Assembly: GCA_964559865.1 (NCBI GenBank) | Contig: CAZLJD010000030.1 | Location: 125,196 to 189,195, forward strand | DNA length: 64,000 bases | Reading direction: 5' to 3' | Source: an uncultured Synergistota bacterium | GTDB taxonomy: Bacteria > Synergistota > JAGHAJ01 | In this document: positions 906 through 39,539 of the stretch, piece by piece | Layout of the letters: the number at the start of each line of letters is the position of its first letter | How positions within the stretch are numbered: the stretch's first letter is position 1 | Program-made: the position numbers and the translations under genes | The notes under the pieces: generated by a model | Seen by the model: the letters and a program-made list of their open reading frames with translations, nothing else | The model's database searches: none | Told to the model about the DNA's origin: nothing

Positions 906-1940
906 TTGCAGAGATGGAAGCAGGATGTCTTTACGAAATTGACATTTTTGATGCTGTGGTTTTTGGCAGGGATAACGCTTCTTAATGTGATTCAAGGGAA
1001 GCCTTTCTGTCATGTCCTTATACTGAGCGTAGCTACCTTACTGGATGCGTTTATGTTTTTTGTGGCTTTTTTCTACGAAAGGTATTTTATATCTGCGTGG
1101 TTGTGGTTGACCATAGGGGTATTGGTTGGGCTATGGTTCACTACAGGTGGGCTCCAGAGCGCCATCTCTTATTATTTTATAATACCGTTCTTGTTTAATC
1201 TTGTGTTCTTCGAGGGTAGGAAACGGGTGTTGGGTTTTGTAGGTATAGTTTTTGTCTTTCTTTCGCTTTCCATAGTGGAGTATCACTATCCTTACTTGGT
1301 GTATAGGTACTCGTCCCGGTTTGATAGGTGGTTGCATGTCTCGAGTGCAGCACTGTTTTACATGATAATCTCTGCGTTTTTTGTCTCTATAGTGCTGAGG
1401 GAGTTTGTAAAGGAGCAGATCATAGTGAAGCTACAGAACAGGCGTCTTGAGGAGCTCAGCATGAAGGATAGTTTAACGGGTTTGTATAATCACGATGCCA
1501 TTATAGAGATGTTGACCAAAGAGTTAGAAATGGTCAAGAGGTTTGGGAGTCCTCTCTCCGTTTTGATGTTTGATGTAGATGATTTTAAGAGTATAAACGA
1601 TGAGCTTGGTCATCAAGTAGGAGATGAGGTTTTAAAGGTGGTTGGGAGTGTTGTAAGGGAGAGTATCAGGGGTGCAGATGTGCCCGGTAGGTATGGTGGG
1701 GATGAGTTTCTGGTCGTGCTACCCCAGTCGAATATTACTGGTGCTCGCCTCGTTGCAGATAGAATAAGAAATAGATTGCGCTCTCTGAGAGTAAGTGGCT
1801 TGAATAGGGCCATAACGATAAGTGGAGGTATTGTTGGGGCGGATGGTCATACTGCAGAAAAATTAATAAGAATTGTGGACAATCTTTTGTATAGGGCAAA
1901 GAAACAGGGAAAAGACAGAATAGAAGTAGAATTAAGTTAG
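906..1940 (+). CDS. membrane-anchored diguanylate cyclase (GGDEF domain)
   Basis: N-terminal hydrophobic segments; C-terminal GGDEF domain with intact RYGGDEF active-site motif and LTGLYNHDA / FDVDDFKSIND blocks; TTG start. Confidence 0.85.
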   Translation: MQRWKQDVFTKLTFLMLWFLAGITLLNVIQGKPFCHVLILSVATLLDAFMFFVAFFYERYFISAWLWLTIGVLVGLWFTTGGLQSAISYYFIIPFLFNLVFFEGRKRVLGFVGIVFVFLSLSIVEYHYPYLVYRYSSRFDRWLHVSSAALFYMIISAFFVSIVLREFVKEQIIVKLQNRRLEELSMKDSLTGLYNHDAIIEMLTKELEMVKRFGSPLSVLMFDVDDFKSINDELGHQVGDEVLKVVGSVVRESIRGADVPGRYGGDEFLVVLPQSNITGARLVADRIRNRLRSLRVSGLNRAITISGGIVGADGHTAEKLIRIVDNLLYRAKKQGKDRIEVELS

Positions 1941-1961: not shown

Positions 1962-1990
1962 TTGACATCGTTCAGTTAAGGCTGTATACT
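1962..1990 (+). promoter_or_regulatory. sigma70-like promoter for the 13-gene complex operon (TTGACA, 17-nt spacer, TATACT)
   Basis: TTGACA at 1962-1967 and TATACT at 1985-1990 read directly; lies between the GGDEF stop (1940) and the first complex gene (2058). Confidence 0.55.
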
Positions 1991-2057: not shown

Positions 2058-2603
2058 TTGAAGCAAGAAGCCAGCAAGCTAAGTAGATTTCTCTACGCAT
2101 TTATCGTCTATTCCCTTTTGTGGTGTGTATTTGTCCGTTCCCCCGGTATGTTACCCGGTCAGTGCACGCAGGAGTATGTAGTAGGGATAGTTCTTTCCTT
2201 CTTAGCAGCGTTGGTTAGCTACAAGCATCTTTCCTCTCGTGGTTTAAGAAATTTCTCTCTGCACAGGATTTTGTGGGTTCTCGGATACATACCTGTGCTT
2301 ATATGGGCAATGATAAAGGCAAATCTGGATGTTGCTTACCGCGTGCTTCATCCCAAGATGCCCATAAAACCTGGGATAGTGAGGATAAGGACCGATTTGA
2401 AAAACCCTCTTGCCAAGCTGGTGCTTGCCAACTCTATTACGCTTACGCCTGGCACCATGACTATGCAGATAATAGAGGACAGGTATTACATTCACTGGAT
2501 ATATGTGAGGAGTGAAGATGAAAAGCTGGCAGGAGAGTACATAAAGGGGGAGTTTGAGAAGTACATTAAGGAGGCGTTTGATGACCACGATTACCCATCC
2601 TGA
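2058..2603 (+). CDS. Mrp antiporter subunit E-like membrane protein (MbxA/MbsA-type)
   Basis: Hydrophobic ~180 aa protein, first gene of an operon with MrpF/G/B/C/D homologues; TTG start after AAAGGGTGG. Confidence 0.65.
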   Translation: MKQEASKLSRFLYAFIVYSLLWCVFVRSPGMLPGQCTQEYVVGIVLSFLAALVSYKHLSSRGLRNFSLHRILWVLGYIPVLIWAMIKANLDVAYRVLHPKMPIKPGIVRIRTDLKNPLAKLVLANSITLTPGTMTMQIIEDRYYIHWIYVRSEDEKLAGEYIKGEFEKYIKEAFDDHDYPS

Positions 2604-2853
2604 TCTTTTTCTGTTTTTTATAGGTGTCATAGCTGTGGCAGCCTTTTTGTCGTTGGTGAGGATAATAAAGGGTCCTACGGCGGCAGACAGAGCAGTGGCC
2701 ATGGATATAATGACCAATATAACCATTGTGCTTCTGGTTATATTGGGACTTTTCTTTGATAGGTTTGTTTATCTTGATGTTGCTTTGGTCTATGGGATAC
2801 TCTCATTTGTTGGAGTAATAGCCATAGCGAGGTATCTTGAGAAGGGTATGTGA
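2581..2853 (+). CDS. Mrp antiporter subunit F-like (MbxB-type)
   Basis: Small membrane protein with GPTAADRAVAMD motif typical of MrpF/MnhF; ATG at 2581 preceded by AAGGAGG, overlapping the upstream gene. Confidence 0.75.
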   Translation: MTTITHPDLFLFFIGVIAVAAFLSLVRIIKGPTAADRAVAMDIMTNITIVLLVILGLFFDRFVYLDVALVYGILSFVGVIAIARYLEKGM

Positions 2854-2860
2854 TCTGGTA

Positions 2861-3193
2861 ATGGTGGAATTTTTGAGGGTTTTGGGTTACTTTTTTGTGG
2901 GTGTAGGTTCTTTTTTTCTTTTGTTAGCCTCTATAGGCCTTATAAGGATGCCGGATGTGTATAACAGAATGCAGACATCCACGAAGGCTACCACATTGGG
3001 AGCACTAAGCGTCCTGTTGGGGGTAGGCTTTTTGAACCTCTATTGGTTGCCGAAGAGTCTTGTCATAGCAGCTTTTATTCTGTTAACAGCGCCGGTTGGA
3101 GCCAGTGCTTTGGTGAGGGCGAGTTACAGATCCGGCATAAAGCTGTGGGAGGGTAGCGTCGTTAATAAGTGTAAAGAGGACGAGGAGGGCTGA
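2861..3193 (+). CDS. Mrp antiporter subunit G-like (MbxC-type)
   Basis: RMPDVYNRMQTSTKATTLG motif typical of MrpG/MnhG; start chosen at ATG 2861 (track ORF begins at 2837 TTG). Confidence 0.75.
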   Translation: MVEFLRVLGYFFVGVGSFFLLLASIGLIRMPDVYNRMQTSTKATTLGALSVLLGVGFLNLYWLPKSLVIAAFILLTAPVGASALVRASYRSGIKLWEGSVVNKCKEDEEG

Positions 3194-3195
3194 TT

Positions 3196-3447
3196 GTGGA
3201 GCTGTATGACTTTGTTTCCATTATCCTTATAGGGGGAATGATCGTGCTGGCTTTCATAGCTGCTGAGAGTAGAGACTTGCTTTCTGCCTCTATTGCGATG
3301 GGGGTAGTTAGTCTCATTGTGTCTATCTTGTTTTACATGCTTCAGGCACCAGATGTTGCCATAACGGAGGCAGCTATAGGTGCAGCATTGAGCCTGGCGG
3401 TTATGATATTTGGCATAAAGCACACAGATAGGTGGGAGAAAAAGTGA
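3196..3447 (+). CDS. small membrane subunit of Mrp/Mbx-type complex (MbxD-like)
   Basis: 83-aa two-helix hydrophobic protein, GTG start after GAGGAGGG, position in operon. Confidence 0.55.
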   Translation: MELYDFVSIILIGGMIVLAFIAAESRDLLSASIAMGVVSLIVSILFYMLQAPDVAITEAAIGAALSLAVMIFGIKHTDRWEKK

Positions 3448-4172
3448 AAAGGATAATAGCTATAACCCTTTCTGTGTTGATATTTCTTATATTCATGACT
3501 GCCTTTGCACGGGTAAAGTTTGGTAATATAGCCCTGAGCAAGTACTTTTACTTTAATCCCGTAAAGAAGCAGATGACGAGAGACTCTGTGCCAAGTCATT
3601 ACCTTAAAGAGGGGATAAAAGAAACGGGTTCGACCAACATAGTAACGGCTGTTGTGGTTGATTATAGGGGCTTTGATACTTTGGGAGAGGTTACCGTGCT
3701 GTTTCTTGCTTCTATAGGTGTAGGTGCACTGATGTATATAAAGAGAGAAGAGAAACGCAAGGTACGGGAGGCAAACGAGATAGTGAAGACTGCATCTGCC
3801 TTCCTGTTTGGTTTTATAGTGCTGTTCGGTGCTTATATATTCGTGCATGGGCACCTTACGCCCGGAGGTGGTTTTCCTGGGGGTTCTGTGATTGCTTCAG
3901 CTTACCTTCTGCTCTACCTTGCTTACCCAAAGTATGCGGCAGACCACAGTAAACTTAGTGTCTTGGAAAGCCTGGCAGGACTCACATTTTTGGTTACAGG
4001 TTTGTTAGGTATCATATTCGGGGGACACTTCTTGTACAACTTTTTGCCTTACGGAGTGCCGAGATACCTGTTTAGTGCTGGTGTTATCCCTGTCATATAT
4101 GTAGCAGTTGGCATAAAGGTTGGGTCTGAGCTTACTGGTATAGTGGATTCAATGATGGGGGTGAGAGAGTGA
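3432..4172 (+). CDS. Mrp antiporter subunit B-like (MbxE/F-type)
   Basis: NIVTAVVVDYRGFDTLGEVTVL and HGHLTPGGGFPGG motifs characteristic of MrpB/MnhB. Confidence 0.75.
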   Translation: MGEKVKRIIAITLSVLIFLIFMTAFARVKFGNIALSKYFYFNPVKKQMTRDSVPSHYLKEGIKETGSTNIVTAVVVDYRGFDTLGEVTVLFLASIGVGALMYIKREEKRKVREANEIVKTASAFLFGFIVLFGAYIFVHGHLTPGGGFPGGSVIASAYLLLYLAYPKYAADHSKLSVLESLAGLTFLVTGLLGIIFGGHFLYNFLPYGVPRYLFSAGVIPVIYVAVGIKVGSELTGIVDSMMGVRE

Positions 4173-4501
4173 TCTTCTATGCTGCATCGCTGGCACTCGT
4201 TGCCATAGGTATATATGTGGTCATTTCGAAGAGAAATCTCATCAAGATCATCATAGGGCTCGATATGATAGATACGGGTGTGAACCTCCTTTTGATTTCC
4301 ATAGGATATGTCCGTGGGGGAACGGCACCTATAGAAAATGGTAACTATCCGCTTTATGTGGATCCAATCCCTCACGCATTGGTTCTTACTGCTATAGTAA
4401 TAGGGGTTTCCGTTATGGCTCTCGCCCTTTCTATAGTGATAGGTCTTTATAGACATACTGGTACGCTTGAGATAGACGAGATAAGGGGGCTTGTAAAGTG
4501 A
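4169..4501 (+). CDS. Mrp subunit C / NuoK-like (MbxG-type)
   Basis: 110-aa three-helix protein resembling NuoK/MrpC; GTG start overlapping upstream stop. Confidence 0.75.
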   Translation: MIFYAASLALVAIGIYVVISKRNLIKIIIGLDMIDTGVNLLLISIGYVRGGTAPIENGNYPLYVDPIPHALVLTAIVIGVSVMALALSIVIGLYRHTGTLEIDEIRGLVK

Positions 4502-5919
4502 TAAGACCTGTTCTTTTGATCGCTTTGCCGTTGTTCTTTGCGTTTTTGCTGCCAGTTATTGGCTTATGGAACAAGAAGGGCGTTAAGTATGTGACTGTTG
4601 GTGTTATGGGAGTAGAGTTGTTGCTTGCAGTTGCCCTGCTTGATGAGGTCTTGTTGCACCCCGTTATAGATAAGATTGGTGGATTTGTTCCCCCAATAGG
4701 TATAGTGCTTATGGTGGGTAGGCTTGGTGGTTTTCTTACGCTTATAATAGCGCTTTCCGCCTTCGTGATCTCTATATACAACCTCTGGGAGGACAAAGAG
4801 CCTATCGTTAGGTACAACATGCTTTCACTCTTGCTCCTTATGGGTTCCGTTGGGATGGTAATTACAGGTGATATATTTAACCTGTTTGTTTTTCTTGAGA
4901 TTACATCTATAGCCTCTTACGGACTCGCATCCTATAATCGTGATGCAAGGGGTTTTTCTGGAGCAATAAAGTATGTAGTACTTGGTTCTATAGGCAGTAG
5001 TTTTGTTCTGATAGGTATAGCGTTGATATATGCCCAGTTGAGGACACTTAACATGCTCGACATAGCGCACAGGATAGGAGAGATGGACCCTTATGTTAGG
5101 CTGATTGCTTTTACATCTCTGTTCCTCGGTTTTGGAGTGGAAGCGGAGATGTTTCCTTTAAACACATGGGTACCAGGTGTTTATGATGGAGCACCCAACG
5201 CCGTTGTAAGTATGTTTGCTTCCATGCCTGCAAAATCTTCTATTTTTGCACTTGCAAGGATGATGTTTACCGTTTTTTCCTTTAGTGGCTTTATGTGGTT
5301 TGTTGCAATCTTGGGGCTTATTACCGTTTTCTTCGGCGAGATGGTGGCATTTGCACAGGATAAGCTGAAGAAGATGCTTGCCTATTCTTCCATAGGGCAG
5401 ATGGGTATGATCATTATGGGGTTGGGTATAGGCACTGCTATGTCTGTTGAGGGTGCGTTTTTTCAGATGTTTGGGCACGCGCTTGCAAAAGCTTTGCTCT
5501 TCTTGGCAGCTGGGTATATGATCTATGCGGTTAAGAGCGAAAAGATACAGGACATGGTGGGAGTTGCAAAGAATCCTTTGGTGGGCGTGCCGGTAGTTAT
5601 TGCCATACTTTCTCTCCTCGGTATGCCACCATTTGTGGGATTTTACGGTAAGTTTTATATAGTGCTTGGTGGTATCGATGCAAGGGCTTACGGGATTATA
5701 GCGCTGTTTTTGGCCGCTACGATTATAGAGGTTGTGTATTATGCCAGATTTATAAAGGTTGCATTTGCAAAACCCGTTAGGGAGTATGTTTCACCGGAGC
5801 CGGTTGTGTATTTGCCGATGATGGTGTTTGCCATTGTCATAGTGGTTTTTGGTATTTTCCCGGCACCTATCTTTGCTATTTTGAGCAAGGTTTCCATGTT
5901 TATCCTGGGAGGAATATGA
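4498..5919 (+). CDS. antiporter-like subunit, MrpD/NuoN family (MbxH-type)
   Basis: 473-aa polytopic protein with proton-pumping antiporter-type conserved blocks (AYSSIGQMG, HALAKALLF). Confidence 0.85.
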   Translation: MIRPVLLIALPLFFAFLLPVIGLWNKKGVKYVTVGVMGVELLLAVALLDEVLLHPVIDKIGGFVPPIGIVLMVGRLGGFLTLIIALSAFVISIYNLWEDKEPIVRYNMLSLLLLMGSVGMVITGDIFNLFVFLEITSIASYGLASYNRDARGFSGAIKYVVLGSIGSSFVLIGIALIYAQLRTLNMLDIAHRIGEMDPYVRLIAFTSLFLGFGVEAEMFPLNTWVPGVYDGAPNAVVSMFASMPAKSSIFALARMMFTVFSFSGFMWFVAILGLITVFFGEMVAFAQDKLKKMLAYSSIGQMGMIIMGLGIGTAMSVEGAFFQMFGHALAKALLFLAAGYMIYAVKSEKIQDMVGVAKNPLVGVPVVIAILSLLGMPPFVGFYGKFYIVLGGIDARAYGIIALFLAATIIEVVYYARFIKVAFAKPVREYVSPEPVVYLPMMVFAIVIVVFGIFPAPIFAILSKVSMFILGGI

Positions 5920-5920
5920 G

Positions 5921-7735
5921 ATGGGGCATCAGGACTTGTTCTGGCTATTTGTGATTCTTCCGGCATTTGGTGGTATCCTTTCTTTTTTTCTTGAGAGGTA
6001 TGCAGTGGCTGTTGCAACGCTCTTCAGTGGAGTAGTGCTTGCATTTGCTATGTTTGGCTATGGTATGGCTGGGATGGGGGTACTGCATGTTGGGTTTGAG
6101 ATGCACCTTTCCTTGGATGCTGTATCTTGGTTCTTCATGGTAATGATAGACCTCGTTGGGTTTGTTGCTCTTATGTTTTCAATGGAGTTTATTACAGATG
6201 GTAAGGGGAGCTTTTCCTTCTTTATGTTGCTTGCGTTGGCGGGTGCAAACGGCGTCGTAATGTCAAGGGATTTTCTATCCCTGTATATCTTTTGGGAGAT
6301 CATGTCTTGGTCTGTTTTCCTATTGGTGTTGCGGAGCTCTGGGGAGTGGGCTAAAAAATACATCGTTTTTGCCGTAATTTCTGCTGTGCTCTTGCTGATG
6401 GGTATAGGTGTTGTGTACCATTATTCTGGTAGCTTGGTGTATAGTGGTGCGGTGAAGGGGCTGTCTCTGTCTGCGTGGGGTGTTGCATTGTCTCTTCTGA
6501 TTGTTGGCTTTATGGTGAAAATGGCCGTTGTGCCGTTGCATGTGTGGGCACCGTATGCCTATTCTTCTGAACAGACATTTGTTGCGTTCTTGTCTGGGGG
6601 TTTAAGTAAGCTTGGTACATTTGGAGTACTCGTGGTGATGTATATGGCTGCAGGTGTTTCCGTGATGCACGGTTTTGGCGTTTTTAAGAATGTTTCACTG
6701 TTTGGTTATCCTTTTGCTCTGCTCGGTGCAATCACAGCTTTTGTGGGTACTATAGTTGCTGTGTTTCAAGATGACATAAGAAAACTCCTTGCGTATTCCT
6801 CTATTGGGCAACTTGGTTATGTAATGGTTGGTTTGGGACTTGGTATGCCACTTGCCGTTGGGGGGGCGATCTTTCACGCTTTTAACCATGCGATGTTTAA
6901 GTCCGTACTGTTTATGGGGGTAGCGGCGGTCTTCTATAGAGTAAAGACATACAGGATAAGTGAGATGGGCGGTTTGGGTTACAAGATGCCGTTTACATTT
7001 TTGGCGGTGCTTACGGCTATATTTGGTCTTGCTGGCATACCTGTAACATCTGGCTTTATTTCGAAGTGGATGCTTTACGAAGCGGCAATTCAGAACAGAT
7101 TTGTCATAATTGCTCCTCTCATGCTGGTTGCCTCTGTCGGGGCGTTTCTGTATTGCTTCAGAATCCTCTACGGGGTATTCCTGGGTCAGATAGATAGGGG
7201 TAAAGAAGAGGTAAAAGAGGTTGGCGTTTGGATGCTTTTACCGATGTACATCCTTGTTGTACCTCTTTTGCTCTTTGCACTGTTTCCTGGTTGGATACTT
7301 GCTTGGATAAATGACATGTTGGTCTACATGAATGTGGGAAGGTTGAGCTATACTACTTACAGTTTTTCCTCTCTTATAGGTAATGCAGATATGCTACTGT
7401 TTCTTGGTTCGTTCTTCGTTGCGTTTGCTATAGCTGTGGCACTGTTCGTTAAGAGACCTGCAACAAATGTAGACCAGTATGATAATTACCTCTCTGGAGA
7501 GGTAAGGGAGTATGTAAGGTTGCATGCTGCTTATAACTTTTACAAACCCCTGAAGGATGTGTGGGCACCACTCCTCAACAGGAGTATAGATAGAGGGTAC
7601 GATGCCTTTGGGAAGATGCTGGGGGTTGTGTTTGATAGGGTTAAACTCTTTTACACGGGCAATCCTCAGGACTATGCTGCCTATGTTGGTTTAGCGTTTC
7701 TCATATTTGTAGTGGTTGGATGGTGGTTGAGATGA
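5921..7735 (+). CDS. second antiporter-like subunit, NuoL/MrpA family (MbxH'-type)
   Basis: 604-aa polytopic protein with AYSSIGQLGY and HAFNHAMFKS blocks; RBS GGGAGGAA. Confidence 0.85.
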   Translation: MGHQDLFWLFVILPAFGGILSFFLERYAVAVATLFSGVVLAFAMFGYGMAGMGVLHVGFEMHLSLDAVSWFFMVMIDLVGFVALMFSMEFITDGKGSFSFFMLLALAGANGVVMSRDFLSLYIFWEIMSWSVFLLVLRSSGEWAKKYIVFAVISAVLLLMGIGVVYHYSGSLVYSGAVKGLSLSAWGVALSLLIVGFMVKMAVVPLHVWAPYAYSSEQTFVAFLSGGLSKLGTFGVLVVMYMAAGVSVMHGFGVFKNVSLFGYPFALLGAITAFVGTIVAVFQDDIRKLLAYSSIGQLGYVMVGLGLGMPLAVGGAIFHAFNHAMFKSVLFMGVAAVFYRVKTYRISEMGGLGYKMPFTFLAVLTAIFGLAGIPVTSGFISKWMLYEAAIQNRFVIIAPLMLVASVGAFLYCFRILYGVFLGQIDRGKEEVKEVGVWMLLPMYILVVPLLLFALFPGWILAWINDMLVYMNVGRLSYTTYSFSSLIGNADMLLFLGSFFVAFAIAVALFVKRPATNVDQYDNYLSGEVREYVRLHAAYNFYKPLKDVWAPLLNRSIDRGYDAFGKMLGVVFDRVKLFYTGNPQDYAAYVGLAFLIFVVVGWWLR

Positions 7736-8676
7736 CGGTTATGCTGGAGAACTGGCTTGTGTCTGCTTTGTATGTGTTTTTGGCGATATGTGTAGGATTG
7801 CTTTTTGGAGGAATAGCGAGAAAGGTTACTGCACGCATTCAGAACAGGGTAGGGCCACCTGTTTACCAGAACTTCATAGATGTGGGAAAACTCCTTACAA
7901 AGAAGTCAAACATCAGACACAATTGGATATTTGACTTTGCACCGGTATTTGCCCTGTCAGGGGTAATTATGATACTTCTCTACCTGCCTATGGGTGGTTA
8001 TAGGATGTTTGCCTCTAAAGGGGACCTTATCCTCCTTATGTATATAATGGTGATACCTGCACTGGGTTTTGCGCTTGGTGCTGGTGCAAGCATGAATCCT
8101 AATGCTGGCGTGGGCGTTATGAGGGCATTAACCCTTATGCTCTCTTACGAGATGCCCTTTGTTATAGTGTTACTTTCTGTTATGATATACTACGACACAG
8201 CTTCGCTTACCACCCTTCTTGGAAAGCAGTTTTCCGTGGGGTGGGCTATAGTTGCTCTCCCTATATCGGCAGTTGCGGCTGACATGGCTTTGCAGGGAAT
8301 GATGATGGAAAAGCCGTTTGATATACCGATTGCACCCCACGAGATAGCGTCCGGTCCGTTGGTGGAGTTTGGCGGCAAGTACCTTGGAATGTTGATGCTA
8401 TATTCGGCGGGCGGCATCGTGGTGGAAACCTCTTTGTTTGTGGATCTGTTTCTTGGTGGTGGAGTGGTTCTGGACCCAGCCGTATATGGATTTTGGGCTT
8501 ATTTGGTAAATTATGTTGTGTGGTTTGCCCTCATACTGGCAGTTTGGTTGATAGCGGTGTTTGTGAACGCTGTGTTTCCGAGGTTCAGGATAGAGCAGGC
8601 GTTTAAGTTCTACTGGAAGTGGCCAACGGTTATAGCTATACTGGGATTGGTTCAGGCATACTTTTTGAAGGGATGA
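7720..8676 (+). CDS. NuoH/HycD-like membrane subunit (MbxM-type)
   Basis: 318 aa, RKVTARIQNRVGPP motif typical of NuoH-family subunits. Confidence 0.85.
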   Translation: MVVEMTVMLENWLVSALYVFLAICVGLLFGGIARKVTARIQNRVGPPVYQNFIDVGKLLTKKSNIRHNWIFDFAPVFALSGVIMILLYLPMGGYRMFASKGDLILLMYIMVIPALGFALGAGASMNPNAGVGVMRALTLMLSYEMPFVIVLLSVMIYYDTASLTTLLGKQFSVGWAIVALPISAVAADMALQGMMMEKPFDIPIAPHEIASGPLVEFGGKYLGMLMLYSAGGIVVETSLFVDLFLGGGVVLDPAVYGFWAYLVNYVVWFALILAVWLIAVFVNAVFPRFRIEQAFKFYWKWPTVIAILGLVQAYFLKG

Positions 8677-8677
8677 G

Positions 8678-9208
8678 TTGTCTATGTCTAAGGAAATGAG
8701 TTACAGGGATTGGACAGAGGTAGAGAGGCTTCTTTCCAGGAGGTCCTTGTGGATAATACACTTCTGTACTGGATGTGGGGCAATGGAGATGCCCGCTATC
8801 ATGACCTCCCGTTACGATATGGAGAGGTTTGGTATAATGCCCATGGCGACTCCGAGGCAAGCAGACATCATGCTTGTTACCGGTTATGTGGCTGTTAAAA
8901 CTTTGAAGAGGATAGTTCGTGTCTATGAGCAGATGCAGGATCCGAAATATGTTGTTGCGTTTGGTTCGTGTCCTATAAATGGCGGTTTGTATTGGGATTC
9001 CTATAATACGATAAAGCAACTCGATAAGTACATACCCGTAGATATCTACATAGCAGGCTGTATGCCAAGGCCGGAGGCTATCATGGATGCACTTCTGAAG
9101 CTTATGGATATGATAGACAGGGGTGAAGCGGACGGGTGGCGGAGGTATAAGGAGCAGTTTGAGGTTTACAAGGCGAATCAGAACAGGGTTTTTAAGAGGT
9201 GGGATTGA
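8678..9208 (+). CDS. NuoB-like small subunit with [4Fe-4S] cluster (MbxJ-type)
   Basis: Four conserved Cys (CTGCG ... GSCP ... AGCMPRPE) in NuoB/hydrogenase small-subunit arrangement. Confidence 0.9.
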   Translation: MSMSKEMSYRDWTEVERLLSRRSLWIIHFCTGCGAMEMPAIMTSRYDMERFGIMPMATPRQADIMLVTGYVAVKTLKRIVRVYEQMQDPKYVVAFGSCPINGGLYWDSYNTIKQLDKYIPVDIYIAGCMPRPEAIMDALLKLMDMIDRGEADGWRRYKEQFEVYKANQNRVFKRWD

Positions 9209-9687
9209 TGGAGACTTTTGGGATAGATTTCAAGGAGCTTCCCGTTAAGGGCAATACAAGAAAGCGGCTTTATGGCAGTGTGGAACTTGATAGGATAAAG
9301 GAACACATTAGAAAGTTCAAAGAGGTAGGTTTTAATCACCTTGTTGCGATAAGCTGTATAGATTGGATAGACGATGGAAAGTTTGAGGTGGTTTATCATT
9401 TGTGGAGCTACGAGGAGTTGGTAGATATATTCCTTTCGGTGATGATAGATAGAGATAACCCCAGCCTTCAGAGTGTAAAGGAGCTTTTCCCTCAGGCTGA
9501 GACTTACGAAAGAGAGATGCACGAGATGTTTGGCGTATATTTTGATGGCAACGATAGGTTAACGGAGTTTATCCTTGAAGACTGGGATGGTCCTCCGCCT
9601 ATGCGCAAGGACTTTGACACTAAGAAGTATGCTGAGGAGCGTTTCTATTCTGTACCTCCGGTAGGTGATGTAGATGAAGGAGTATGA
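9208..9687 (+). CDS. NuoC-like subunit (MbxK-type)
   Basis: ~160 aa with NuoC-family blocks (ETYEREMHEMFGVYFDGN); ATG overlaps upstream stop (TGATG). Confidence 0.8.
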   Translation: METFGIDFKELPVKGNTRKRLYGSVELDRIKEHIRKFKEVGFNHLVAISCIDWIDDGKFEVVYHLWSYEELVDIFLSVMIDRDNPSLQSVKELFPQAETYEREMHEMFGVYFDGNDRLTEFILEDWDGPPPMRKDFDTKKYAEERFYSVPPVGDVDEGV

Positions 9688-10804
9688 GCTTTTCATAGGA
9701 CCTCAACATGTTGGTATTACGGGAAACTTTATGGTTCACCTCACATTAGAAGGAGATACAGTAGTAAGTGCGGAGGCACACCCTGGTTATCTTCACCGAG
9801 GTTTCGAAAAACTCATGGAGAGAAGAGATTGGTCCATGAATGTTGCACTTATACCAAGGATATGTGTTCCGGAACCAGATGTCAATGAGGCTGCTTATGC
9901 GATGGCAGTTGAGAGCCTGATGGGGTGGGATATTCCAGAGAGGGCTAAATACATAAGGACAATAGTGCTTGAGCTTGCAAGGATATCTGCATATCTGCTT
10001 GCGATAGGTGGATATGCAGGCACGATAGGTTTGTATACTGCACCACAGTGGATGATGGGGGACAGAGATTACATTCTTGACCTGTTTGAGGAGCTGACTG
10101 GTGCACGAGTGTATCACATATTTATATTTCCTGGGGGTGTGAGGTGGGATATCCCAGATGGCTTCGAGGAACGGGTGAAGAAGGTCATGGACTATCTTGA
10201 AAGCAGACTCCAGCTCTATGATGAGCTACTCTTCAAAAACGAGGTGTTCTTCAGAAGGGCGCCTAATATAGGTGTTATTCCAAAGGATAAGGCTGTGGAA
10301 TGGGGGGTTACTGGGCCTAATCTTCGTGCATGTGGCTATGACTACGATGTCAGGAGGCTTGACCCGTACGCTGCTTACGAAGAGATGGATTTTGATGTGA
10401 TCTCCTACCCTGATAGTGTTAAGGGGTTTGATATCCTTTCTGATGGGTGTGACTGTTATGCAAGGATGGTTGTCAGAAGGGTAGAGTTGCAGGAGAGTAT
10501 AAAGATAATCCGACAGGCTGTGGATAATTTACCTCCGGGTGAAGTAACTCTAAAGAGACCCAATCCCCTTGCCTGGAAAGTACCAAAGGGATATGCGTAT
10601 GCGAGGGTTGAAAGTTCAAAGGGGGAATACGGGTACTTCGTGGTAAGTAACGGTGGTAAGAATCCGTATAGGGTGCATGTGAGGGGACCATCTTATACGC
10701 ACGGCATAAATGTCATTGAGACGATATTGAAAGGTTCAAACATAGCAGATGTTTCTCCCATAATGTTTAGCTTGGATATATGTCCACCTGACATAGAGAG
10801 GTGA
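9674..10804 (+). CDS. NuoD / [NiFe]-hydrogenase large-subunit homologue with incomplete metal-ligand motifs (MbxL/MbsL-type)
   Basis: Group-4 large-subunit-like protein; the N-terminal site reads RICVPE (Cys codon 9863-9865, Glu in place of the second Cys) and the C-terminal site reads DICPPDIER (Cys codon 10781-10783, Asp in place of the second Cys). Confidence 0.85.
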   Translation: MKEYELFIGPQHVGITGNFMVHLTLEGDTVVSAEAHPGYLHRGFEKLMERRDWSMNVALIPRICVPEPDVNEAAYAMAVESLMGWDIPERAKYIRTIVLELARISAYLLAIGGYAGTIGLYTAPQWMMGDRDYILDLFEELTGARVYHIFIFPGGVRWDIPDGFEERVKKVMDYLESRLQLYDELLFKNEVFFRRAPNIGVIPKDKAVEWGVTGPNLRACGYDYDVRRLDPYAAYEEMDFDVISYPDSVKGFDILSDGCDCYARMVVRRVELQESIKIIRQAVDNLPPGEVTLKRPNPLAWKVPKGYAYARVESSKGEYGYFVVSNGGKNPYRVHVRGPSYTHGINVIETILKGSNIADVSPIMFSLDICPPDIER

Positions 10805-10805
10805 T

Positions 10806-11267
10806 GTGATGAGTATAGTCAAGCCTTTTAAGGCGTTGCAGCACCTGTTTAAGAAACCACACACGGTTAGGATCCCTTATCAGGAGCATACAGACATAAC
10901 AGGTTTGCCTGTACCTACCGAGAGGTATAGAGGCTTTCACTCCAATGACATACAGAAGTGTATAGGGTGTCAGTTGTGCGGTAGGGTATGCCCTGCAAAT
11001 GCGATTACGTATGAAAAGTTCGAAAATGTGGAGAGCAAAATAAAGCTCAGACCGGTTGTGGACTATGGCCGGTGCTGTTACTGTGGTTTTTGCGTAGATG
11101 TGTGCCCTACAAAGTCTTTGAAACTTACACCCCGATACGAACTGGTATCTCCTAATATAAAGGACTTCAAGTTTATACCCACGGCTGAGATTGCGGGCAA
11201 GGATGATAAAGCAATCTCCATGTCGGAGGTGTTGTTCTCCCCGAAAGATTATAAACCTTCGGAATAG
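10806..11267 (+). CDS. NuoI-like 2x[4Fe-4S] ferredoxin subunit (MbxN-type)
   Basis: Two CxxCxxCxxxCP motifs (CIGCQLCGRVCP, CCYCGFCVDVCP). Confidence 0.85.
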   Translation: MMSIVKPFKALQHLFKKPHTVRIPYQEHTDITGLPVPTERYRGFHSNDIQKCIGCQLCGRVCPANAITYEKFENVESKIKLRPVVDYGRCCYCGFCVDVCPTKSLKLTPRYELVSPNIKDFKFIPTAEIAGKDDKAISMSEVLFSPKDYKPSE

Positions 11268-11305
11268 GCTTTTGTGCCGTTAAACTCTTATGGTAAAATA
11301 TTGGC

Positions 11306-14116
11306 ATGAGAAAGAGAATAGCTGTACTTGTTGTTTCCATGCTGGCTATTATGGTGTCTATTATCTACTTTGTGGATAGGTGGGTGCTCATAGATTACAT
11401 AAGCTCCCAGCTGTCTACCTCATTTCGTCAGAGGCTCTCCGGCATAAGACAGCTCGTGGATGGTGGGGTAACTGCGAGTAAGCTTGTTAGAGAGTACAGA
11501 GGATATGTCACCAATCTGGTATTGGAGGATGACCTTCAGAGGGTAAAGGCATTCTTGCAGATGTGTGATTCGTGGTCGAAGGCAGGTATACTGAGTGAGG
11601 ATGATGCAAAAAGGCTTGCGCTGAGCTACTTAAAGTCGGTTGGTGCCTATGTGTTGAACTCTTCGGGTAAAGCGCTCGTTTTCCCTGTCTACATTGAGAA
11701 GTTTTCCAAGAGTTCCGGAAGGCATGTGGGTTGGAGGAGGTTTGCTCCCTGGGGCTGGAAGATAGGAATGGTAATGAGTGAGAGGGATATCTTTGGTGTG
11801 CAGTATGGAGGCTTTGAGAAGCGGATAAAGAGTGCTGTCTTGAAGAGGATTAGTTACATGCCCTCTAATGGATCTTATGTGGTGGTATACAACAGGCGTG
11901 GCAGGATCATATCCTATCCTCACAGAAAGGTTTCTGCGGATGACCTACCAAGTTCTCCTTATGTGAAGAAGGTGTTTTCGCTTAAGAGTGGTAGTTTTAC
12001 CTATTCTTTTAACGGTAAGAGAAAAGAGAGGGTGTTCTCTTATGTGCCACTTATTGGGTGGTACATAGTCTTTACTGCTTACCCTGATGAGATGTGTTAT
12101 CCGATGCTTGTGAATATGCTGAAAGGGGAACTACCGACTGTTGTGGTTATATTGGTGTTATTAGGAGCCCTTGGGTTGTACGCGTGGAACAAATGTGTGC
12201 TCCTTCCACTTACGCAGGTAACGACAGGATTTGAGGAGCTTGGCAAGGGAAACTACAACTACAAGTTAGACCCCGATACCATAAGATACCCTTATATGAA
12301 AAGCCTTTTTAAGGACTTTAACTATATGATAGAAAAGCTCAAAGAGGGAGAAGAGGAACTCGTCAGGGCTTACAGGAAGTTAGAGGTGCTCAATGCAAGT
12401 ATATCACGCAGATATGAGGACCTCCAAAGGGAGCTTGAAAGGTTAAGGGTTTTGGACGCAATAATATCTGCCACGATCGGACTTGTGGATCACAAGGAGA
12501 TAGCTGCCCGTGTTGTAGATACGCTGGCTTCTACTGGGAGGTATAGTGATATAGGTATCCTGCTGAAGGAGGGAGATCTCCTTAAACGACTTGCGCATCA
12601 CGGTATAGTGTGGAGTAAGTTTGAGCAGTTTCCCATTAATAGTGGAGTGACCGGATGGGCGGTTAGGGATAAGGAGATAAAAAATGTTCCCAATGTTTTG
12701 GCTGAGAGTCACTATGTTGAAGGGAATGCCGCTGTCCGTTCTGAGCTTGCGTGTCCTATAGTCCTTGGTACAGATGTCGTGGGTGTGGTGGATGTGGAGA
12801 GTATGGAACCCTCTTACTTCGTTAGGGATGATGAGCTTATGCTTAGGATGGTGAGTGACTACCTTGCGATGGTCTTCCGGAGGGCTGACTCTGTGAAGTT
12901 GCTTCAGAGAAGACTTAAAGATATGGGCTTTTTACTGCGTCTGCTTAGGAGCGTCTCTAAGACGGAGCACATAGGTGAGCTGTCGAAACAGGTATGCGAG
13001 ATGGTGCAGGAGTATGGTGATTACAATAATGTGACGATGTACATTAGGGACGGGAATTTGCTGGTTTTAACCTATATTGCCGGTTTGCCCATACCTGAAG
13101 ATGTGTATAAGGTAGATTGGGGGATAATCAGTATCTATGGGAAAGGGATATCTGCCAGGGCGGCAAGGACTGCGGAGATGCAGAATGTTCCGAACTGCCT
13201 TGAGGACCCTGATTATCTGGTGGGGGATCGCACCACCAAGAGTGAGCTTGCCGTTCCAGTAAAAGTGGGAAATGAGGTTTTTGCGGTATTGGACTTAGAG
13301 TCAAACGAGTTCAATGCGTTTGGTAAGGAGGATGAGAGGCTGCTTTACCTGATTGCTGAGAACCTTGGGGCAATAATTCGGAGGGTGGAACTGGTGGAGG
13401 GGCTTGAAAGCACCGTTAAGGCACTGGAGGAGAGGAATAAGGAGCTCACACTCAAAGATGAGGAGCTGGAAGTTTCTGTTGAACAGCTTAGGGCCTATAC
13501 TCGGGAGCTTGAGAGCGTTCATCGTGATATGGTACAAAAGGAGACGGAACTTGAGGAAGCGTACTTGGATACCATAAAGGCTCTGGCAAGGGCTATAGAG
13601 ATGAAGGATCCATATGCGAGGGGACACACTACGAAGGTGGCAAGCTATGCGTTGAAGGTGGGGGAGGCTCTAGGACTAAGTGAAGAGGATATGAGGAATC
13701 TCTTGTATGCAGCGATCCTTCACGATATAGGCAGGATAGGACTTAAAGGGGCTGTTCTCGACAAACCTCATGAACTCACAGAAAAGGAAATAGAGTATAT
13801 AAAGGGGTATCCTGCAAGAGGTGCAAGTGTGCTAATGCAGATAGACTACCTTAGAGATGTGGCAAATGTGGTTTTGCACCACCAGGAGAGATGGGATGGT
13901 AGTGGCTATCCTGCAGGTTTAAAGGGAGAAGAGATACCGCTTTTGAGTAGGATTATAGCAGTCGTTGATGCCTATGATGCCATGATCTCTGATAGACCTT
14001 ACAGAAAGGCACTCTCAAAGGAAGAGGCGTTGAGGAGGATAAAGGAGTCTGCGGGGACGCAGTTTGACCCGAGGATTGTGGATGTCTTTTTGAAAGTTGT
14101 AGGGGAAGAGGAGTAA
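11306..14116 (+). CDS. membrane sensor with periplasmic domain, two GAF domains and C-terminal HD-GYP c-di-GMP phosphodiesterase domain
   Basis: Two TM segments flanking a ~250-aa extracytoplasmic region, coiled coils, GAF-like regions, then HD-GYP (LHDIGRIG ... HHQERWDGSGYPAGL). Confidence 0.85.
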   Translation: MRKRIAVLVVSMLAIMVSIIYFVDRWVLIDYISSQLSTSFRQRLSGIRQLVDGGVTASKLVREYRGYVTNLVLEDDLQRVKAFLQMCDSWSKAGILSEDDAKRLALSYLKSVGAYVLNSSGKALVFPVYIEKFSKSSGRHVGWRRFAPWGWKIGMVMSERDIFGVQYGGFEKRIKSAVLKRISYMPSNGSYVVVYNRRGRIISYPHRKVSADDLPSSPYVKKVFSLKSGSFTYSFNGKRKERVFSYVPLIGWYIVFTAYPDEMCYPMLVNMLKGELPTVVVILVLLGALGLYAWNKCVLLPLTQVTTGFEELGKGNYNYKLDPDTIRYPYMKSLFKDFNYMIEKLKEGEEELVRAYRKLEVLNASISRRYEDLQRELERLRVLDAIISATIGLVDHKEIAARVVDTLASTGRYSDIGILLKEGDLLKRLAHHGIVWSKFEQFPINSGVTGWAVRDKEIKNVPNVLAESHYVEGNAAVRSELACPIVLGTDVVGVVDVESMEPSYFVRDDELMLRMVSDYLAMVFRRADSVKLLQRRLKDMGFLLRLLRSVSKTEHIGELSKQVCEMVQEYGDYNNVTMYIRDGNLLVLTYIAGLPIPEDVYKVDWGIISIYGKGISARAARTAEMQNVPNCLEDPDYLVGDRTTKSELAVPVKVGNEVFAVLDLESNEFNAFGKEDERLLYLIAENLGAIIRRVELVEGLESTVKALEERNKELTLKDEELEVSVEQLRAYTRELESVHRDMVQKETELEEAYLDTIKALARAIEMKDPYARGHTTKVASYALKVGEALGLSEEDMRNLLYAAILHDIGRIGLKGAVLDKPHELTEKEIEYIKGYPARGASVLMQIDYLRDVANVVLHHQERWDGSGYPAGLKGEEIPLLSRIIAVVDAYDAMISDRPYRKALSKEEALRRIKESAGTQFDPRIVDVFLKVVGEEE

Positions 14117-21990: not shown

Positions 21991-22491
21991 ATGTACTTTT
22001 TCAGAATAAAGGTGCTTTCTGCAGTAAGTGGTGCAGTATTGACTCTTTTCTTTCTCTTTCATCCAGTTGTTTACCTTCAGTTGAGTAAGGGTAAGAAGGT
22101 GTGTCTTTACCAACCTATGGGTTTGGGAGGTGTTATTCACTTTCAGACGAGGAATTCAGTTGAGGGTAGTAGATGGGATGAGTATTGGCAGGTAGGGTGG
22201 GATGGGAAACTTTGGGTTGTTGATACCGTGTATCGTGATGAGGGGGCGGGATTCCCTATCGCCCCCTCCAAAGGAGCGCACTTTAAACAGACGGAAGAGG
22301 GTTTTGAGATATACGGTATGCATAGAATAATAACTGTTCCTCTTTACGTAAGGTTTGATGGTAAGAGGGATATCGTTATAGAGGTGGGTGGCAAGATACT
22401 TGCCCTTAAAAAGTTTGGAGAGGGTCTTTATCGTTTGGAGCTCTTTAGGGTGCCGTGGTTGAGGACATTGTTTGGAGGTGATGTGAGGTGA
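21991..22491 (+). CDS. hypothetical membrane-anchored protein (possibly DUF1850-like, often adjacent to TAXI receptors)
   Basis: N-terminal hydrophobic anchor, 166 aa; family name recalled from memory, not verified. Confidence 0.45.
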   Translation: MYFFRIKVLSAVSGAVLTLFFLFHPVVYLQLSKGKKVCLYQPMGLGGVIHFQTRNSVEGSRWDEYWQVGWDGKLWVVDTVYRDEGAGFPIAPSKGAHFKQTEEGFEIYGMHRIITVPLYVRFDGKRDIVIEVGGKILALKKFGEGLYRLELFRVPWLRTLFGGDVR

Positions 22492-23324
22492 TTGTAGATG
22501 TTCATGTGCACATACTACCACCAGAAGTAATAAAGGACATTGATCACTATAAGGCTAAAGACGAATACTTTGCACTCCTTCATAGAGATCCAAAGAGCAG
22601 ATTTGCGACGGCTGAGAGTGTTATTGAGGAGATGAACCGTAGCGGTGTAGATAGAAGTGTTGTATTCGGTTTTGCATTTAAGGATATGGGTATTTGCAGG
22701 ATGCTGAATGACTATGTAATGGACGCTGTTAGGAGGTATCCAGACAGATTGATAGGGTTCGGGGTTGTGGATCCTTTGAGCAGCAGTGTTGAGAGGGAGG
22801 TTTTAAGGTGTAAGGAGGGAGGTTTGGTTGGAATAGGGGAGCTTTTTCCTGATGGACAGGGCTTTAATGTAGGGAAACCCGAGGATTTGAAGAGGTTTAC
22901 ATCCGTGTGCAAAGAGGCTGGTATGATTGTTTCTATACACAGTAACGAACCGGTAGGGCACTACTATGAGGGTAAAGATTCTACTTATCCGGAAAAGGCT
23001 TATAGGTTTGCGTTGGCAAACCCTGATCTTGATATAATATTTGCTCATTGGGGAGGGGGGCTGTTTTTCTACGAGCTCATGCCCGAGGTTAGAAAGGCAC
23101 TCAGGCGGGTATTCTATGACACGGCGGCTTCTCCTTATCTTTATACCAAGGAGGTGTACAGGGTTGCAAGTGCTGCAGGTGTCGTTAATAAGGTACTAAT
23201 GGGTACCGATTTCCCTCTCATTGGTCAGAGTAGATATATAAGGGAGATAGAATCCAGTCTTCTAAGTGGTAGCGAGAAAACCGAGATTCTGGGAGGGAAT
23301 GCTGAAAGACTGTTTGATCTCTAA
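22488..23324 (+). CDS. amidohydrolase-family (TIM-barrel metal-dependent hydrolase) protein
   Basis: DVHVHI N-terminal metal-binding motif, internal HSNEP, C-terminal MGTDFP. Confidence 0.75.
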   Translation: MIVDVHVHILPPEVIKDIDHYKAKDEYFALLHRDPKSRFATAESVIEEMNRSGVDRSVVFGFAFKDMGICRMLNDYVMDAVRRYPDRLIGFGVVDPLSSSVEREVLRCKEGGLVGIGELFPDGQGFNVGKPEDLKRFTSVCKEAGMIVSIHSNEPVGHYYEGKDSTYPEKAYRFALANPDLDIIFAHWGGGLFFYELMPEVRKALRRVFYDTAASPYLYTKEVYRVASAAGVVNKVLMGTDFPLIGQSRYIREIESSLLSGSEKTEILGGNAERLFDL

Positions 23325-34370: not shown

Positions 34371-35420
34371 ATGCCGACTAAGTTTTCTTTGGAGACCATG
34401 AGTGCTGCCTTCAAGTTGATGAGAGATATTGTTGGTGTGAAAGAGGGAGAGAGTGTTGTTATAACTGCAGATACGGGTAGTGACTGGAGTGTGGTTGAGG
34501 CTGTGGCAAAGGCATCGACTTTGCTGGGAGCAAAGCCGATGGTGGTATGGTATCCTATGCCACTGGGAGTGGGTAAGGCGGCTGACCCTTACTTGCCACA
34601 GAAACCGTTGGAGGCTGCGGTTTCCAGTGCAGATGTCTGGATAGAGTTTAACATGGGGTGGCTGCTCTATTCTACTGTTTGGGATAATGTGATGGCAGAG
34701 GGTAGTGTTAGGTATCTGTGTTTGGTCGGCATGGGCGTGGACATGTTGGTTAGAACGGTAGAACGGGTTGATGTCGATCTTGTGCTTGAATTCCAGGATA
34801 AACTCGTTGAAGTAACCAAAAGCACACGCAAGATGAGGCTTACCTCTCCTGTGGGTATGGAGCTTGAATTTGAGAATGACCCAGCAAGACCGATTTTCAC
34901 GGAGGGGCGTGTCATGGGTCCAGGGGATTACATGTTGATGGGACAGGTAGACTGGGCACCGATTGAAGAGAGCATAAATGGGGTTTTGGTCTTTGATGGA
35001 TCTGTCTATCCACCAGAGGATGTTGGACTTTTGCGTGCTCCTATATTTTTGGAAGTAGAGAAAGGTCGTGTAGTTTCTGTGAAAGGTGGCTCTGAAGCTA
35101 AGAGGTTTGAGAGATGGCTCAAGAGTTTTGATGACCCTGGTATGTTTAATATAGCTCATATCTCTTATGGGTGCAACCCAGGAGCAAAGCTAACGGGTAA
35201 TATCCTTGAGGATGAGAGGGTCTGGGGTGCTGTGGAGTGGGGGATTGGTAATCAGGCAGATAGCTTCAAAGGGTTAGCGGGTCCTGCTAAGAGCCATACA
35301 GACGGCATATGTTTGAATCCCACACTGATTGCTGATGGGGAGTACCTTATAAAGGATGGAAGTTATGTTCATCCACTGCTTGCAGATATGGAAAAGAGGA
35401 TAATCGGGTCTTCTGGGTGA
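34371..35420 (+). CDS. M29-type aminopeptidase-like protein
   Basis: C-terminal blocks EDERVWGAVEWGIGN and HTDGI resemble AmpS/PepS-family metalloaminopeptidases; tentative. Confidence 0.45.
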   Translation: MPTKFSLETMSAAFKLMRDIVGVKEGESVVITADTGSDWSVVEAVAKASTLLGAKPMVVWYPMPLGVGKAADPYLPQKPLEAAVSSADVWIEFNMGWLLYSTVWDNVMAEGSVRYLCLVGMGVDMLVRTVERVDVDLVLEFQDKLVEVTKSTRKMRLTSPVGMELEFENDPARPIFTEGRVMGPGDYMLMGQVDWAPIEESINGVLVFDGSVYPPEDVGLLRAPIFLEVEKGRVVSVKGGSEAKRFERWLKSFDDPGMFNIAHISYGCNPGAKLTGNILEDERVWGAVEWGIGNQADSFKGLAGPAKSHTDGICLNPTLIADGEYLIKDGSYVHPLLADMEKRIIGSSG

Positions 35421-35497
35421 GCTGGCGGATTCTTTGTATTGACAAAGTGGGCAGTTTGGGGTATCCTTTGTGTGGAAGAAGGGGGGAGGTATCAGGA

Positions 35498-36292
35498 ATG
35501 AAGAGGATAAGAGGGTATATGATTTTCTTTGTGGTGGTTGGAATTCTGGTGTCTTTGTTTTCAACGCTTGCTTTTGCGAAGAGTAATAAGGTGTATGAAG
35601 AATACAAGAAGACGCTTGCGCAGTTTCAGAAGACAGTGGTATATAGAGGGAAGAGGGCTCGTATTTCTATTACTGTTACGTACTACTCTGCAAAGCTGGT
35701 GGATGCCATAGTGAACTGGGAAGCCGAAAAGCACCTGTGGACGGAGGACGAGGCAGAAAACTACAAGTATCAGCTGTTGAAGACATTACACTTTGAAGAT
35801 ATGCTCCCGTTCAAAATTTCCATAGATAATAGAGGACCGAGCATGCACCCGGCACCGTTTGGTTCTAAGGTTACTCTTTGGATAGACAGCAAGAGCTACA
35901 AACCTAAGAAGTACGACTTGAGGTTTAACTTTAAGATAATAGGGAAAAGGGAAGGTATGGTCTTCTTTGCGAGGAGAGGCAAGAATGGGAAGCCGATAAT
36001 AAAGCCGTCGTCCTCTCTCATGCAGATAGTTATAGACAGTTCCATAAGCCCGGTGACCAGTGGGCGGAATTTTGACTTTACATTTAAGTGGGGACATCCT
36101 TACGAGAATCTCGAGGCGCTTGCGAAAGCCGATATAGCCAGAGCCCGTTTAGAGATTGATAGGCTTATGAGGAGGATACAGAGGCTTACGGATAAAAAGA
36201 AGGAGCTTCTGGAACAGTTGAAAAAGATAGAACAAGAGATCGAAATGATAAAGAAGAGAATAAGTGAGCTTGAAAGCGTAAAAGAGAAGTGA
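35498..36292 (+). CDS. hypothetical secreted/membrane-anchored protein with C-terminal coiled coil
   Basis: ATG 35498 preceded by GGGAGGT; N-terminal signal-like segment; K/E-rich heptad region at C-terminus. Confidence 0.5.
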   Translation: MKRIRGYMIFFVVVGILVSLFSTLAFAKSNKVYEEYKKTLAQFQKTVVYRGKRARISITVTYYSAKLVDAIVNWEAEKHLWTEDEAENYKYQLLKTLHFEDMLPFKISIDNRGPSMHPAPFGSKVTLWIDSKSYKPKKYDLRFNFKIIGKREGMVFFARRGKNGKPIIKPSSSLMQIVIDSSISPVTSGRNFDFTFKWGHPYENLEALAKADIARARLEIDRLMRRIQRLTDKKKELLEQLKKIEQEIEMIKKRISELESVKEK

Positions 36293-36302
36293 GGAGTTGG
36301 AG

Positions 36303-39508: not shown

Positions 39509-39539
39509 GTTTTTATCACAAATGCAGGGGGATTTTTTT

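Follow-up and report, generated by a model that had tools for sequence, protein, structure and literature searches.

A thirteen-gene MBS-type operon encoding a large subunit with the remains of a [NiFe] site in an uncultured Synergistota bacterium

In the sulfane reductase complex MBS of Pyrococcus furiosus, which contains two antiporter-like subunits and is reported to reduce polysulfide directly, two of the four cysteines that ligate the NiFe centre in the hydrogenase large subunit MbhL are absent; the remaining two, C85 and C385 of MbsL, lie beside the proximal cluster, with the vestigial NiFe site ~12 Å away from it (Yu et al. 2020, PMC7684303). Cryo-EM and mutagenesis in the same study showed that a C85A/C385A subcomplex has a dimethyltrisulfide reductase activity comparable with the wild-type level. 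The catalytic centre proposed for polysulfide cleavage is the three-cysteine proximal [4Fe-4S] cluster of the MbsJ subunit (PMC7684303; PMC8165549), where a loop that is 3 residues shorter than in hydrogenases prevents the first cysteine of the CxxC motif from reaching the cluster (PMC7684303). The vestigial cysteines of mbx and mbx-like NuoD homologues were noted in 2015 in a comparative paper, which also describes an operon of Thermotogota type with a NuoI-GltD-like fusion and rubrerythrin and cites the older literature in which Mbx is a ferredoxin:NADP+ oxidoreductase (PMC4758237). In bacteria, the 13-subunit MBX of Thermotoga maritima is up-regulated by elemental sulfur (S0) (PMC9431562), and an ‘archaea-derived’, S0-induced MBS is present in Zhurongbacter 3DAC, a deep-branching bacterium for whose thermophilic clade genes for MbsL are reported in most lineages (PMC10356935). 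Here we analyze a 64,000-nucleotide stretch of DNA (the window) from an uncultured Synergistota bacterium (assembly GCA_964559865.1, contig CAZLJD010000030.1, positions 125,196 to 189,195 of the forward strand), which carries a further, uncharacterised MBS operon. As judged from sequence, the encoded complex is an MBS: every sequence-level feature of this family that we looked for was found, and those of hydrogenases and complex I were lacking. We consider its assignment to the MBS/Mbx family very probable. The CxxE/CxxD pattern in its large subunit is not new, as it is the published hallmark that separates MbsL from hydrogenases and NuoD.

The mbsL gene encodes a 376-residue, full-length orthologue of P. 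furiosus MbsL. Its best sequence match among solved structures is P. furiosus MbsL itself (PDB 6U8Y chain L, E 2e-119), which aligns from end to end at ~52% identity, and weaker matches are obtained with Nqo4 (7.8e-75) and MbhL (1.7e-41, 29% identity). An AlphaFold2 model of the protein (mean pLDDT 86.5, pTM 0.89) retrieved 6u8y_L first in a Foldseek search (TM 0.88/0.89), and in Pfam the protein matches Complex1_49kDa (E 6.8e-79), its N-terminal match to NiFeSe_Hases being sub-threshold. The kinship with Mbx/Mbs sulfane reducers that a sequence-only reading of this DNA had suggested is thus borne out by both sequence and fold. That reading had also located the motifs RICVPE and DICPPDIER at the positions where hydrogenases bind the NiFe centre, and the motifs and their cysteine codons are exact on the translation of 9674..10804: Cys64 is encoded at 9863-9865 (TGT), Glu67 at 9872-9874, Cys370 at 10781-10783 (TGT) and Asp373 at 10790-10792. 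Relative to P. furiosus MbsL, the protein contains an 11-residue insertion at about residues 244-260. An extra Cys-Asp-Cys (residues 259-261, 10448..10456) occurs inside it, within the string SDGCDCYARM; GCDCYARM is also present in Bacillota-type group 4 hydrogenases (loci L042-L046). This Cys-Asp-Cys is probably of no significance, because its two cysteines vary within the MbsL family (present in 25/120 and 14/120 homologues, respectively).

To compare the ligand columns, the window L subunit was aligned with P. furiosus MbsL, MbhL (6CFW), Escherichia coli HycE (7Z0S), four further group 4 large subunits taken from loci L042-L046 and four NuoD sequences, with MbhL and HycE recovered from PDB alignments. 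All of the aligned hydrogenase large subunits contain R[IVM]CGIC and DPCxxC. Residues C64, E67, C370 and D373 of the window protein align with MbhL C68, C71, C374 and C377, the four NiFe ligands, and with C85, E88, C385 and D388 of MbsL, and the motifs RICVPEPDV and CPPDI[DE]R are common to both L subunits; NuoD has D, A/S, V and E/D in these columns. The alignment therefore agrees with the sequence-only reading on where the ligand positions lie, and intact CxxC pairs were not found displaced to other positions. Only two of the four cysteines of the RxCGxC ... DPCxxC signature are present, those being the first of each pair, as in MbsL C85/C385, so that the earlier statement that a NiFe centre cannot be assembled is correct. 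The NiFe centre is absent, and Cys64/Glu67 and Cys370/Asp373 are the remains of an ancestral NiFe site. Gly17 occupies the column of the MbhL proton-relay glutamate (E21), and Thr16 and Val65 stand in place of H38 and Y87, which bind the quinone in Nqo4; lack of these residues is a feature of MBS (PMC7684303), and on this basis the site is neither a proton nor a quinone site. A phylogeny of the large subunit, which had been proposed as a check, was computed as a neighbour-joining tree and places the window protein within the MbsL clade, apart from NuoD and from hydrogenases with all four cysteines.

The two-cysteine, two-acid pattern is universal among close relatives of the window protein. 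In a set of its 120 closest database homologues, archaeal and bacterial, which are 56-94% identical to it and ~59% identical to each other, the signature reads R-I-C-V-P-[DE]-P-D ... [DGE]-x-C-[PA]-P-[DE]-x-[DE]-R. Only 66 of the 376 positions (17.6%) are invariant in this family, the longest invariant run being R62-D69. The pattern is not due to chance, because both cysteines and both acidic positions (Asp or Glu) are kept in 120/120 homologues while the remaining three cysteines of the protein vary freely. We also surveyed 150 representatives of 50%-identity clusters, in an alignment of 168 sequences made in the fast mode of MAFFT, for which the ligand columns of very divergent representatives are approximate. 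Most representatives show the NuoD-like state D[ASG][VI][ED], 16 of the 150 are CCCC (hydrogenases), about a dozen are C[DE]C[DE], and a few have other two-cysteine states (CVCE, CACE, CSCE, CTCG) or, in one case, CCCD. The sequence-only reading had singled out the pattern as noteworthy in a bacterial homologue; this emphasis does not hold, given its universality in the family and the description of the vestigial cysteines in 2015 (PMC4758237).

The conservation bears on whether the site still has a function. The residues Cys64 and Cys370, together with Glu67 and Asp373, might bind a metal other than NiFe, or the cysteines might form a redox-active or persulfide-carrying pair; the invariance of all four residues and of the R62-D69 run, the reappearance of C-[DE]-C-[DE] in several of the deeper clusters cut at 50% identity, and the ~12 Å distance to the proximal cluster (PMC7684303) speak for this, but we regard it as unlikely. 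The C85A/C385A subcomplex of P. furiosus retains wild-type dimethyltrisulfide reductase activity, an acid in the fourth column is also the norm in NuoD, where no metal is bound, and packing against MbsJ and its cluster may be sufficient reason for the invariance. Since the fourth-column acid is shared with ordinary NuoD, it is not a special MBS ligand. The sequence-only reading took a Cys2-plus-carboxylate site to have been proposed for Mbx/Mbs complexes; such a site has been neither put forward nor found for MBS, where catalysis is placed on the MbsJ cluster (PMC7684303; PMC8165549) and both vestigial cysteines are unneeded for catalysis in the P. furiosus orthologue. A functional site could nevertheless serve the physiological reaction, the coupling to ion pumping, or assembly and stability, though dispensable in vitro, a proposal to which we assign a small likelihood. 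More specifically, the four residues could form a conserved site that passes on persulfide or polysulfide, acts as a redox switch, or holds a metal and so gates the coupling between sulfur reduction and pumping; if this doubtful idea were true, a hidden site invisible to the soluble-subcomplex assay would explain why four residues are invariant despite being dispensable for dimethyltrisulfide reduction. The invariance of both cysteines is real. Conserved yet dispensable cysteines are a puzzle already acknowledged in the literature, which the 120/120 invariance sharpens.

The MbsJ subunit carries the second signature of the family. Its alignment to 6u8y_J is gap-free (E 1.7e-77), and its four cysteines (codons 8765-8767, 8774-8776, 8969-8971 and 9059-9061; residues 30, 33, 98 and 128 when the open reading frame is counted from 8678, i.e. 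8678..9208) have exactly the spacing of MbsJ C25/C28/C93/C123. Alignment of J subunits, hydrogenase small subunits and NuoB reveals three types of loop: HF----CTGCG in the window protein, HFCGSSCNGCD- in hydrogenases, and a tandem CC (GLACC) in NuoB. The hydrogenase loop is a net 3 residues longer than that of the window J, and 124 residues of the latter align to 127 of MbhJ, such that at the sequence level the CxxC motif is shortened by the 3 residues that distinguish MBS from MBH. The sequence-only reading had stated that this NuoB-like subunit keeps all four cysteines for its cluster. Four cysteines are indeed encoded, but the first cysteine of the MBS CxxC motif cannot reach the cluster and the window protein has the same short loop; by analogy with P. 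furiosus MBS, ligation of the proximal cluster by three cysteines is predicted.

These residues also bear on whether the complex could work as a [NiFe] hydrogenase or as a quinone reductase of the complex I type, a reading to which we give practically no credence. The maturation genes for HypA, HypC, HypD and HypE are located within the window, and the NCBIfam ‘equivalog’ model NF004739 (NADH-quinone oxidoreductase subunit D) names the L subunit NuoD (438 bits versus a cutoff of 360). However, the L subunit lacks the proton-relay glutamate, two of its four NiFe-binding cysteines and the H38/Y87 ligands, the tandem CC of NuoB is CTGC in the window J, and the tree position of the L subunit is that of MbsL. 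The hyp genes lie 28-43 kb from the operon, and their presence would be accounted for by a separate, genuine hydrogenase in the genome. The scanned open reading frames of the window yielded no large subunit with CxxC, and a genuine [NiFe] hydrogenase is probably encoded elsewhere in the genome. The NF004739 score exceeds its cutoff and MbsL-type proteins are therefore systematically named NuoD, which is the source name of MbsL homologues in public records. Correct annotation matters here, as the label ‘NADH-quinone oxidoreductase subunit D’ would falsely imply complex I and quinone respiration in an anaerobe.

The remaining genes complete an operon of MBS architecture. Thirteen tightly packed or overlapping genes on the + strand (2058..11267) are arranged in the order mbsABCDEGHH'MJKLN, with mbsL as the twelfth, and encode an Mrp-type module, two antiporter-like subunits and homologues of NuoH, NuoB, NuoC, NuoD and NuoI, in the absence of NuoEFG (Table 1). 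A relative at 94% identity, GCA_053938165.1 (L050), served to refine the start codons; the mbsA product, for which the longest reading frame is given, is 92% identical to a 158-residue gene product of this relative and 66% identical to that of the ‘Aciduliprofundum sp.’ locus L002. MbsH' is ~130 residues longer than MbsH. The gene order recurs in 6 loci from archaea, in one Thermotogota locus (L020) and in L050. The older ‘Mbx’ hypothesis, in which the complex would be a ferredoxin:NAD(P)+ oxidoreductase and not a sulfane reductase, has been cited from the earlier literature (PMC4758237) and gains from Thermotoga-type mbx-like operons that fuse a GltD-like NAD(P)-binding flavoprotein to NuoI. 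We confirmed this arrangement in L020, whose operon ends with a 621-residue NuoI-GltD-like fusion (9601..11466; Fer4, Fer4_20 and Pyr_redox_2) and rubrerythrin (11476..11973). The window MbsN, however, is of the short archaeal type, with 152 residues, two clusters and no flavoprotein domain, the gene that follows it encodes a Cache-GAF-HD-GYP signalling protein and not a GltD or Nfn homologue, and direct polysulfide reduction is reported for the P. furiosus enzyme, whose architecture is the same, so that we consider this role very improbable for the window complex. The L020 operon encodes a type of complex different from that of the window. Hydrogenase, complex I and ferredoxin:NADP+ oxidoreductase identities were all rejected, on the basis of the ligand residues, the J loop, the neighbour-joining tree and the short MbsN.

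The orthology, operon architecture, residue equivalences, J-loop signature and conservation observed in the window lead us to view its complex as a ferredoxin-oxidising, polysulfide-reducing and ion-pumping MBS, which by analogy we consider likely; substrate, electron donor and ion pumping are inferred from the P. furiosus enzyme, whose detailed mechanism would fairly probably carry over. In this mechanism, electrons from reduced ferredoxin would enter at MbsN through its two [4Fe-4S] clusters and would move on to the proximal [4Fe-4S] cluster of MbsJ, presumably bound by only three cysteines, as the CxxC loop is too short for the first cysteine to reach it. This cluster would reductively cleave polysulfide inside a hydrophobic chamber that MbsL, MbsJ and MbsM enclose together, and interface loops would hand the energy to MbsH and MbsH', the antiporter-like proton pumps, and to the Mrp-type Na+/H+ module (MbsA-G), the outcome being an ion gradient. 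Several points weigh against this view. The substrate, donor and pumped ion are all transferred from an enzyme whose L subunit is ~52% identical, an older role as ferredoxin:NADP+ oxidoreductase has been assigned to Mbx (cited in PMC4758237), and a pure vestige leaves the 120/120 conservation of both cysteines and both acids unexplained. In addition, the mutagenesis used a soluble subcomplex and the model substrate dimethyltrisulfide, which leaves room for the cysteines to have a role when the enzyme is intact and coupled.

The operon resides in a bacterial genome and appears to be of archaeal type. Its flanks encode MurJ, a leucyl-tRNA synthetase of bacterial type (TIGR00396, 1158 bits), the type III pantothenate kinase CoaX, and GGDEF and HD-GYP proteins, and the synthetase is nearest (69%) to metagenome-assembled genomes (MAGs) labelled Synergistota, which places the host tentatively in this phylum. 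The L subunit was compared with a set holding one genome for each species, to which neither the window's own genome nor its 94%-identical relative belongs. The closest L subunits in this set (65-77%) are all found in archaeal MAGs labelled Thermoplasmata, DHVE2 or Aciduliprofundum; a Thermotogota copy is only 51% identical. Across loci L001-L019, L048 and L020, the operon as a whole comes closest to those of Thermoplasmata/DHVE2 (Aciduliprofundum type). All 13 subunits are collinear with those of L002, at 57-80% identity, as compared to 29-56% for the Thermotogota locus. In the neighbour-joining tree, computed without bootstrap, the window protein and its 94% relative nest inside the Thermoplasmata/DHVE2 clade, whose archaeal origin is read from how the records of 20 independent MAG contigs are titled; among the annotated genes flanking L002, no domain-diagnostic gene was found. 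These sequence relationships suggest an old inter-domain transfer of the complete 13-gene operon, whose direction, read from nesting in the unbootstrapped tree and from MAG labels, is provisional. A recent transfer was rejected because no island boundary is visible by GC content, GC at third codon positions or synteny: the operon has the composition of the rest of the window in both measures, and L050 is syntenic on both sides of it at 75-79% DNA identity. There is a precedent for an archaea-to-bacterium acquisition of MBS in Zhurongbacter 3DAC (PMC10356935). The window adds a further case of a bacterial genome that houses a whole sulfur-respiration operon of archaeal (Thermoplasmata/DHVE2-like) type, and it bears on the movement of energy metabolism between domains at hydrothermal sites.

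Table 1. Positions in the window of the operon genes, the vestigial ligand motifs and the hydrogenase maturation genes.
Feature	Position	Strand	Basis and remarks
Sigma-70-like promoter candidate	1962..1990	+	TTGACA-17-TATACT, 11/12 consensus match; ~0.9 expected by chance in the 400 nt scanned
mbsA (MnhE/MrpE-like)	2058..2603	+	PF01899, E 7.9e-41; start uncertain
mbsB (MrpF-like)	2581..2853	+	PF04066; start refined against L050
mbsC (MnhG/MrpG-like)	2861..3193	+	PF03334; refined start
mbsD (MbhD family)	3196..3447	+	PF13244
mbsE (MbhE and MnhB domains)	3444..4172	+	PF20501, PF04039; refined start
mbsG (NuoK/MrpC-like)	4169..4501	+	PF00420
mbsH (antiporter-like proton-pump subunit, 473 aa)	4498..5919	+	PF00361, E 7e-58
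mbsH' (second antiporter-like subunit, 604 aa)	5921..7735	+	PF00361, E 4.6e-48
mbsM (NuoH-like membrane anchor)	7732..8676	+	PF00146
mbsJ (NuoB-like)	8684..9208	+	Predicted to carry the proximal [4Fe-4S] cluster and to be the catalytic site; match to 6u8y_J
mbsK (NuoC-like)	9208..9687	+	PF00329
mbsL	9674..10804	+	NuoD/[NiFe]-large-subunit homologue without NiFe site; match to 6u8y_L; PF00346
N-terminal vestige of RxCGxC	9857..9880	+	R62-I-C64-V-P-E67-P-D69
C-terminal vestige of DPCxxCxxR	10775..10801	+	D368-I-C370-P-P-D373-I-E-R376
mbsN (NuoI-like)	10809..11267	+	Fer4 families; two CxxCxxCxxxCP motifs for two [4Fe-4S] clusters
hypA	39444..39881	+	[NiFe]-hydrogenase maturation
hypE	51748..52746	-	[NiFe]-hydrogenase maturation
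hypD	52743..53834	-	[NiFe]-hydrogenase maturation
hypC	53831..54136	-	[NiFe]-hydrogenase maturation

The operon is flanked by signalling genes. A membrane GGDEF protein is encoded upstream (906..1940, +), in a region that in L050 is seemingly split into calls of 187 and 74 residues, and a 936-residue Cache-GAF-GAF-HD-GYP protein (11306..14116, +) begins 39 nt past mbsN and occupies the same place in L050; a regulatory link between these cyclic di-GMP signalling genes and the operon is possible. Beside the hyp genes are a DsbD-type transmembrane protein and two thioredoxin-like proteins (54136..55872, +), and farther along a pair of MetF and MetV-like methylenetetrahydrofolate reductase genes (57083..58636, -). 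Of the 32 two-kb bins of the window, 29 show a strongly positive GC skew (0.13-0.39), and the + strand carries most of the genes, with several - strand genes at ~52-60 kb as an exception, which is consistent with a leading-strand segment. For several open reading frames of 110-349 residues, within 34371..36887, 39943..40275, 49451..50113 and 21991..23324, neither Pfam nor NCBIfam gave a match at E <= 1e-5.

Among the described systems, P. furiosus MBS shares with the window complex the order of its 13 genes, a full-length L subunit with RICVPEPD and CPPDIxR, the spacing of the J cysteines and the short loop, the presence of both H and H', a short two-cluster N, and the lack of a proton-relay glutamate and of quinone ligands. 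It differs in that the host of the window operon is a bacterium and the window L contains the insertion with the non-conserved Cys-Asp-Cys. The Thermoplasmata/DHVE2 operons of Aciduliprofundum type are fully collinear and are the nearest for all 13 subunits, but belong to a different host domain, whereas the window operon has bacterial flanks and a sigma-70-like promoter candidate upstream. Thermotoga-type Mbx-like complexes are likewise bacterial, have equal subunit families, are induced by S0 in T. maritima and keep a C..E / C..E pattern in L (RICVPEPD and CPPEIDR in L020). Their L is nonetheless 51% identical and their other subunits 29-56% identical to those of the window, and they end in a NuoI-GltD-like fusion, often followed by rubrerythrin, neither of which is present in the window. 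Group 4 [NiFe] hydrogenases (MbhL and HycE) have the same fold, the same ligand-bearing segments and the first cysteine of each pair; in the window L, Glu and Asp stand in for the second cysteines and Gly for the proton-relay glutamate, the protein is 29% identical to MbhL, the J loop falls short by 3 residues, and there are two pumps as compared to one. Lastly, NuoD/Nqo4 of complex I resembles the window L in its fold (TM ~0.87), in the acid at the fourth ligand column and in the NuoD name that public pipelines give to both, but it has no cysteines at the ligand columns (typically D, S/A, V and E), contains H38 and Y87, and is partnered by a NuoB with the tandem CC.

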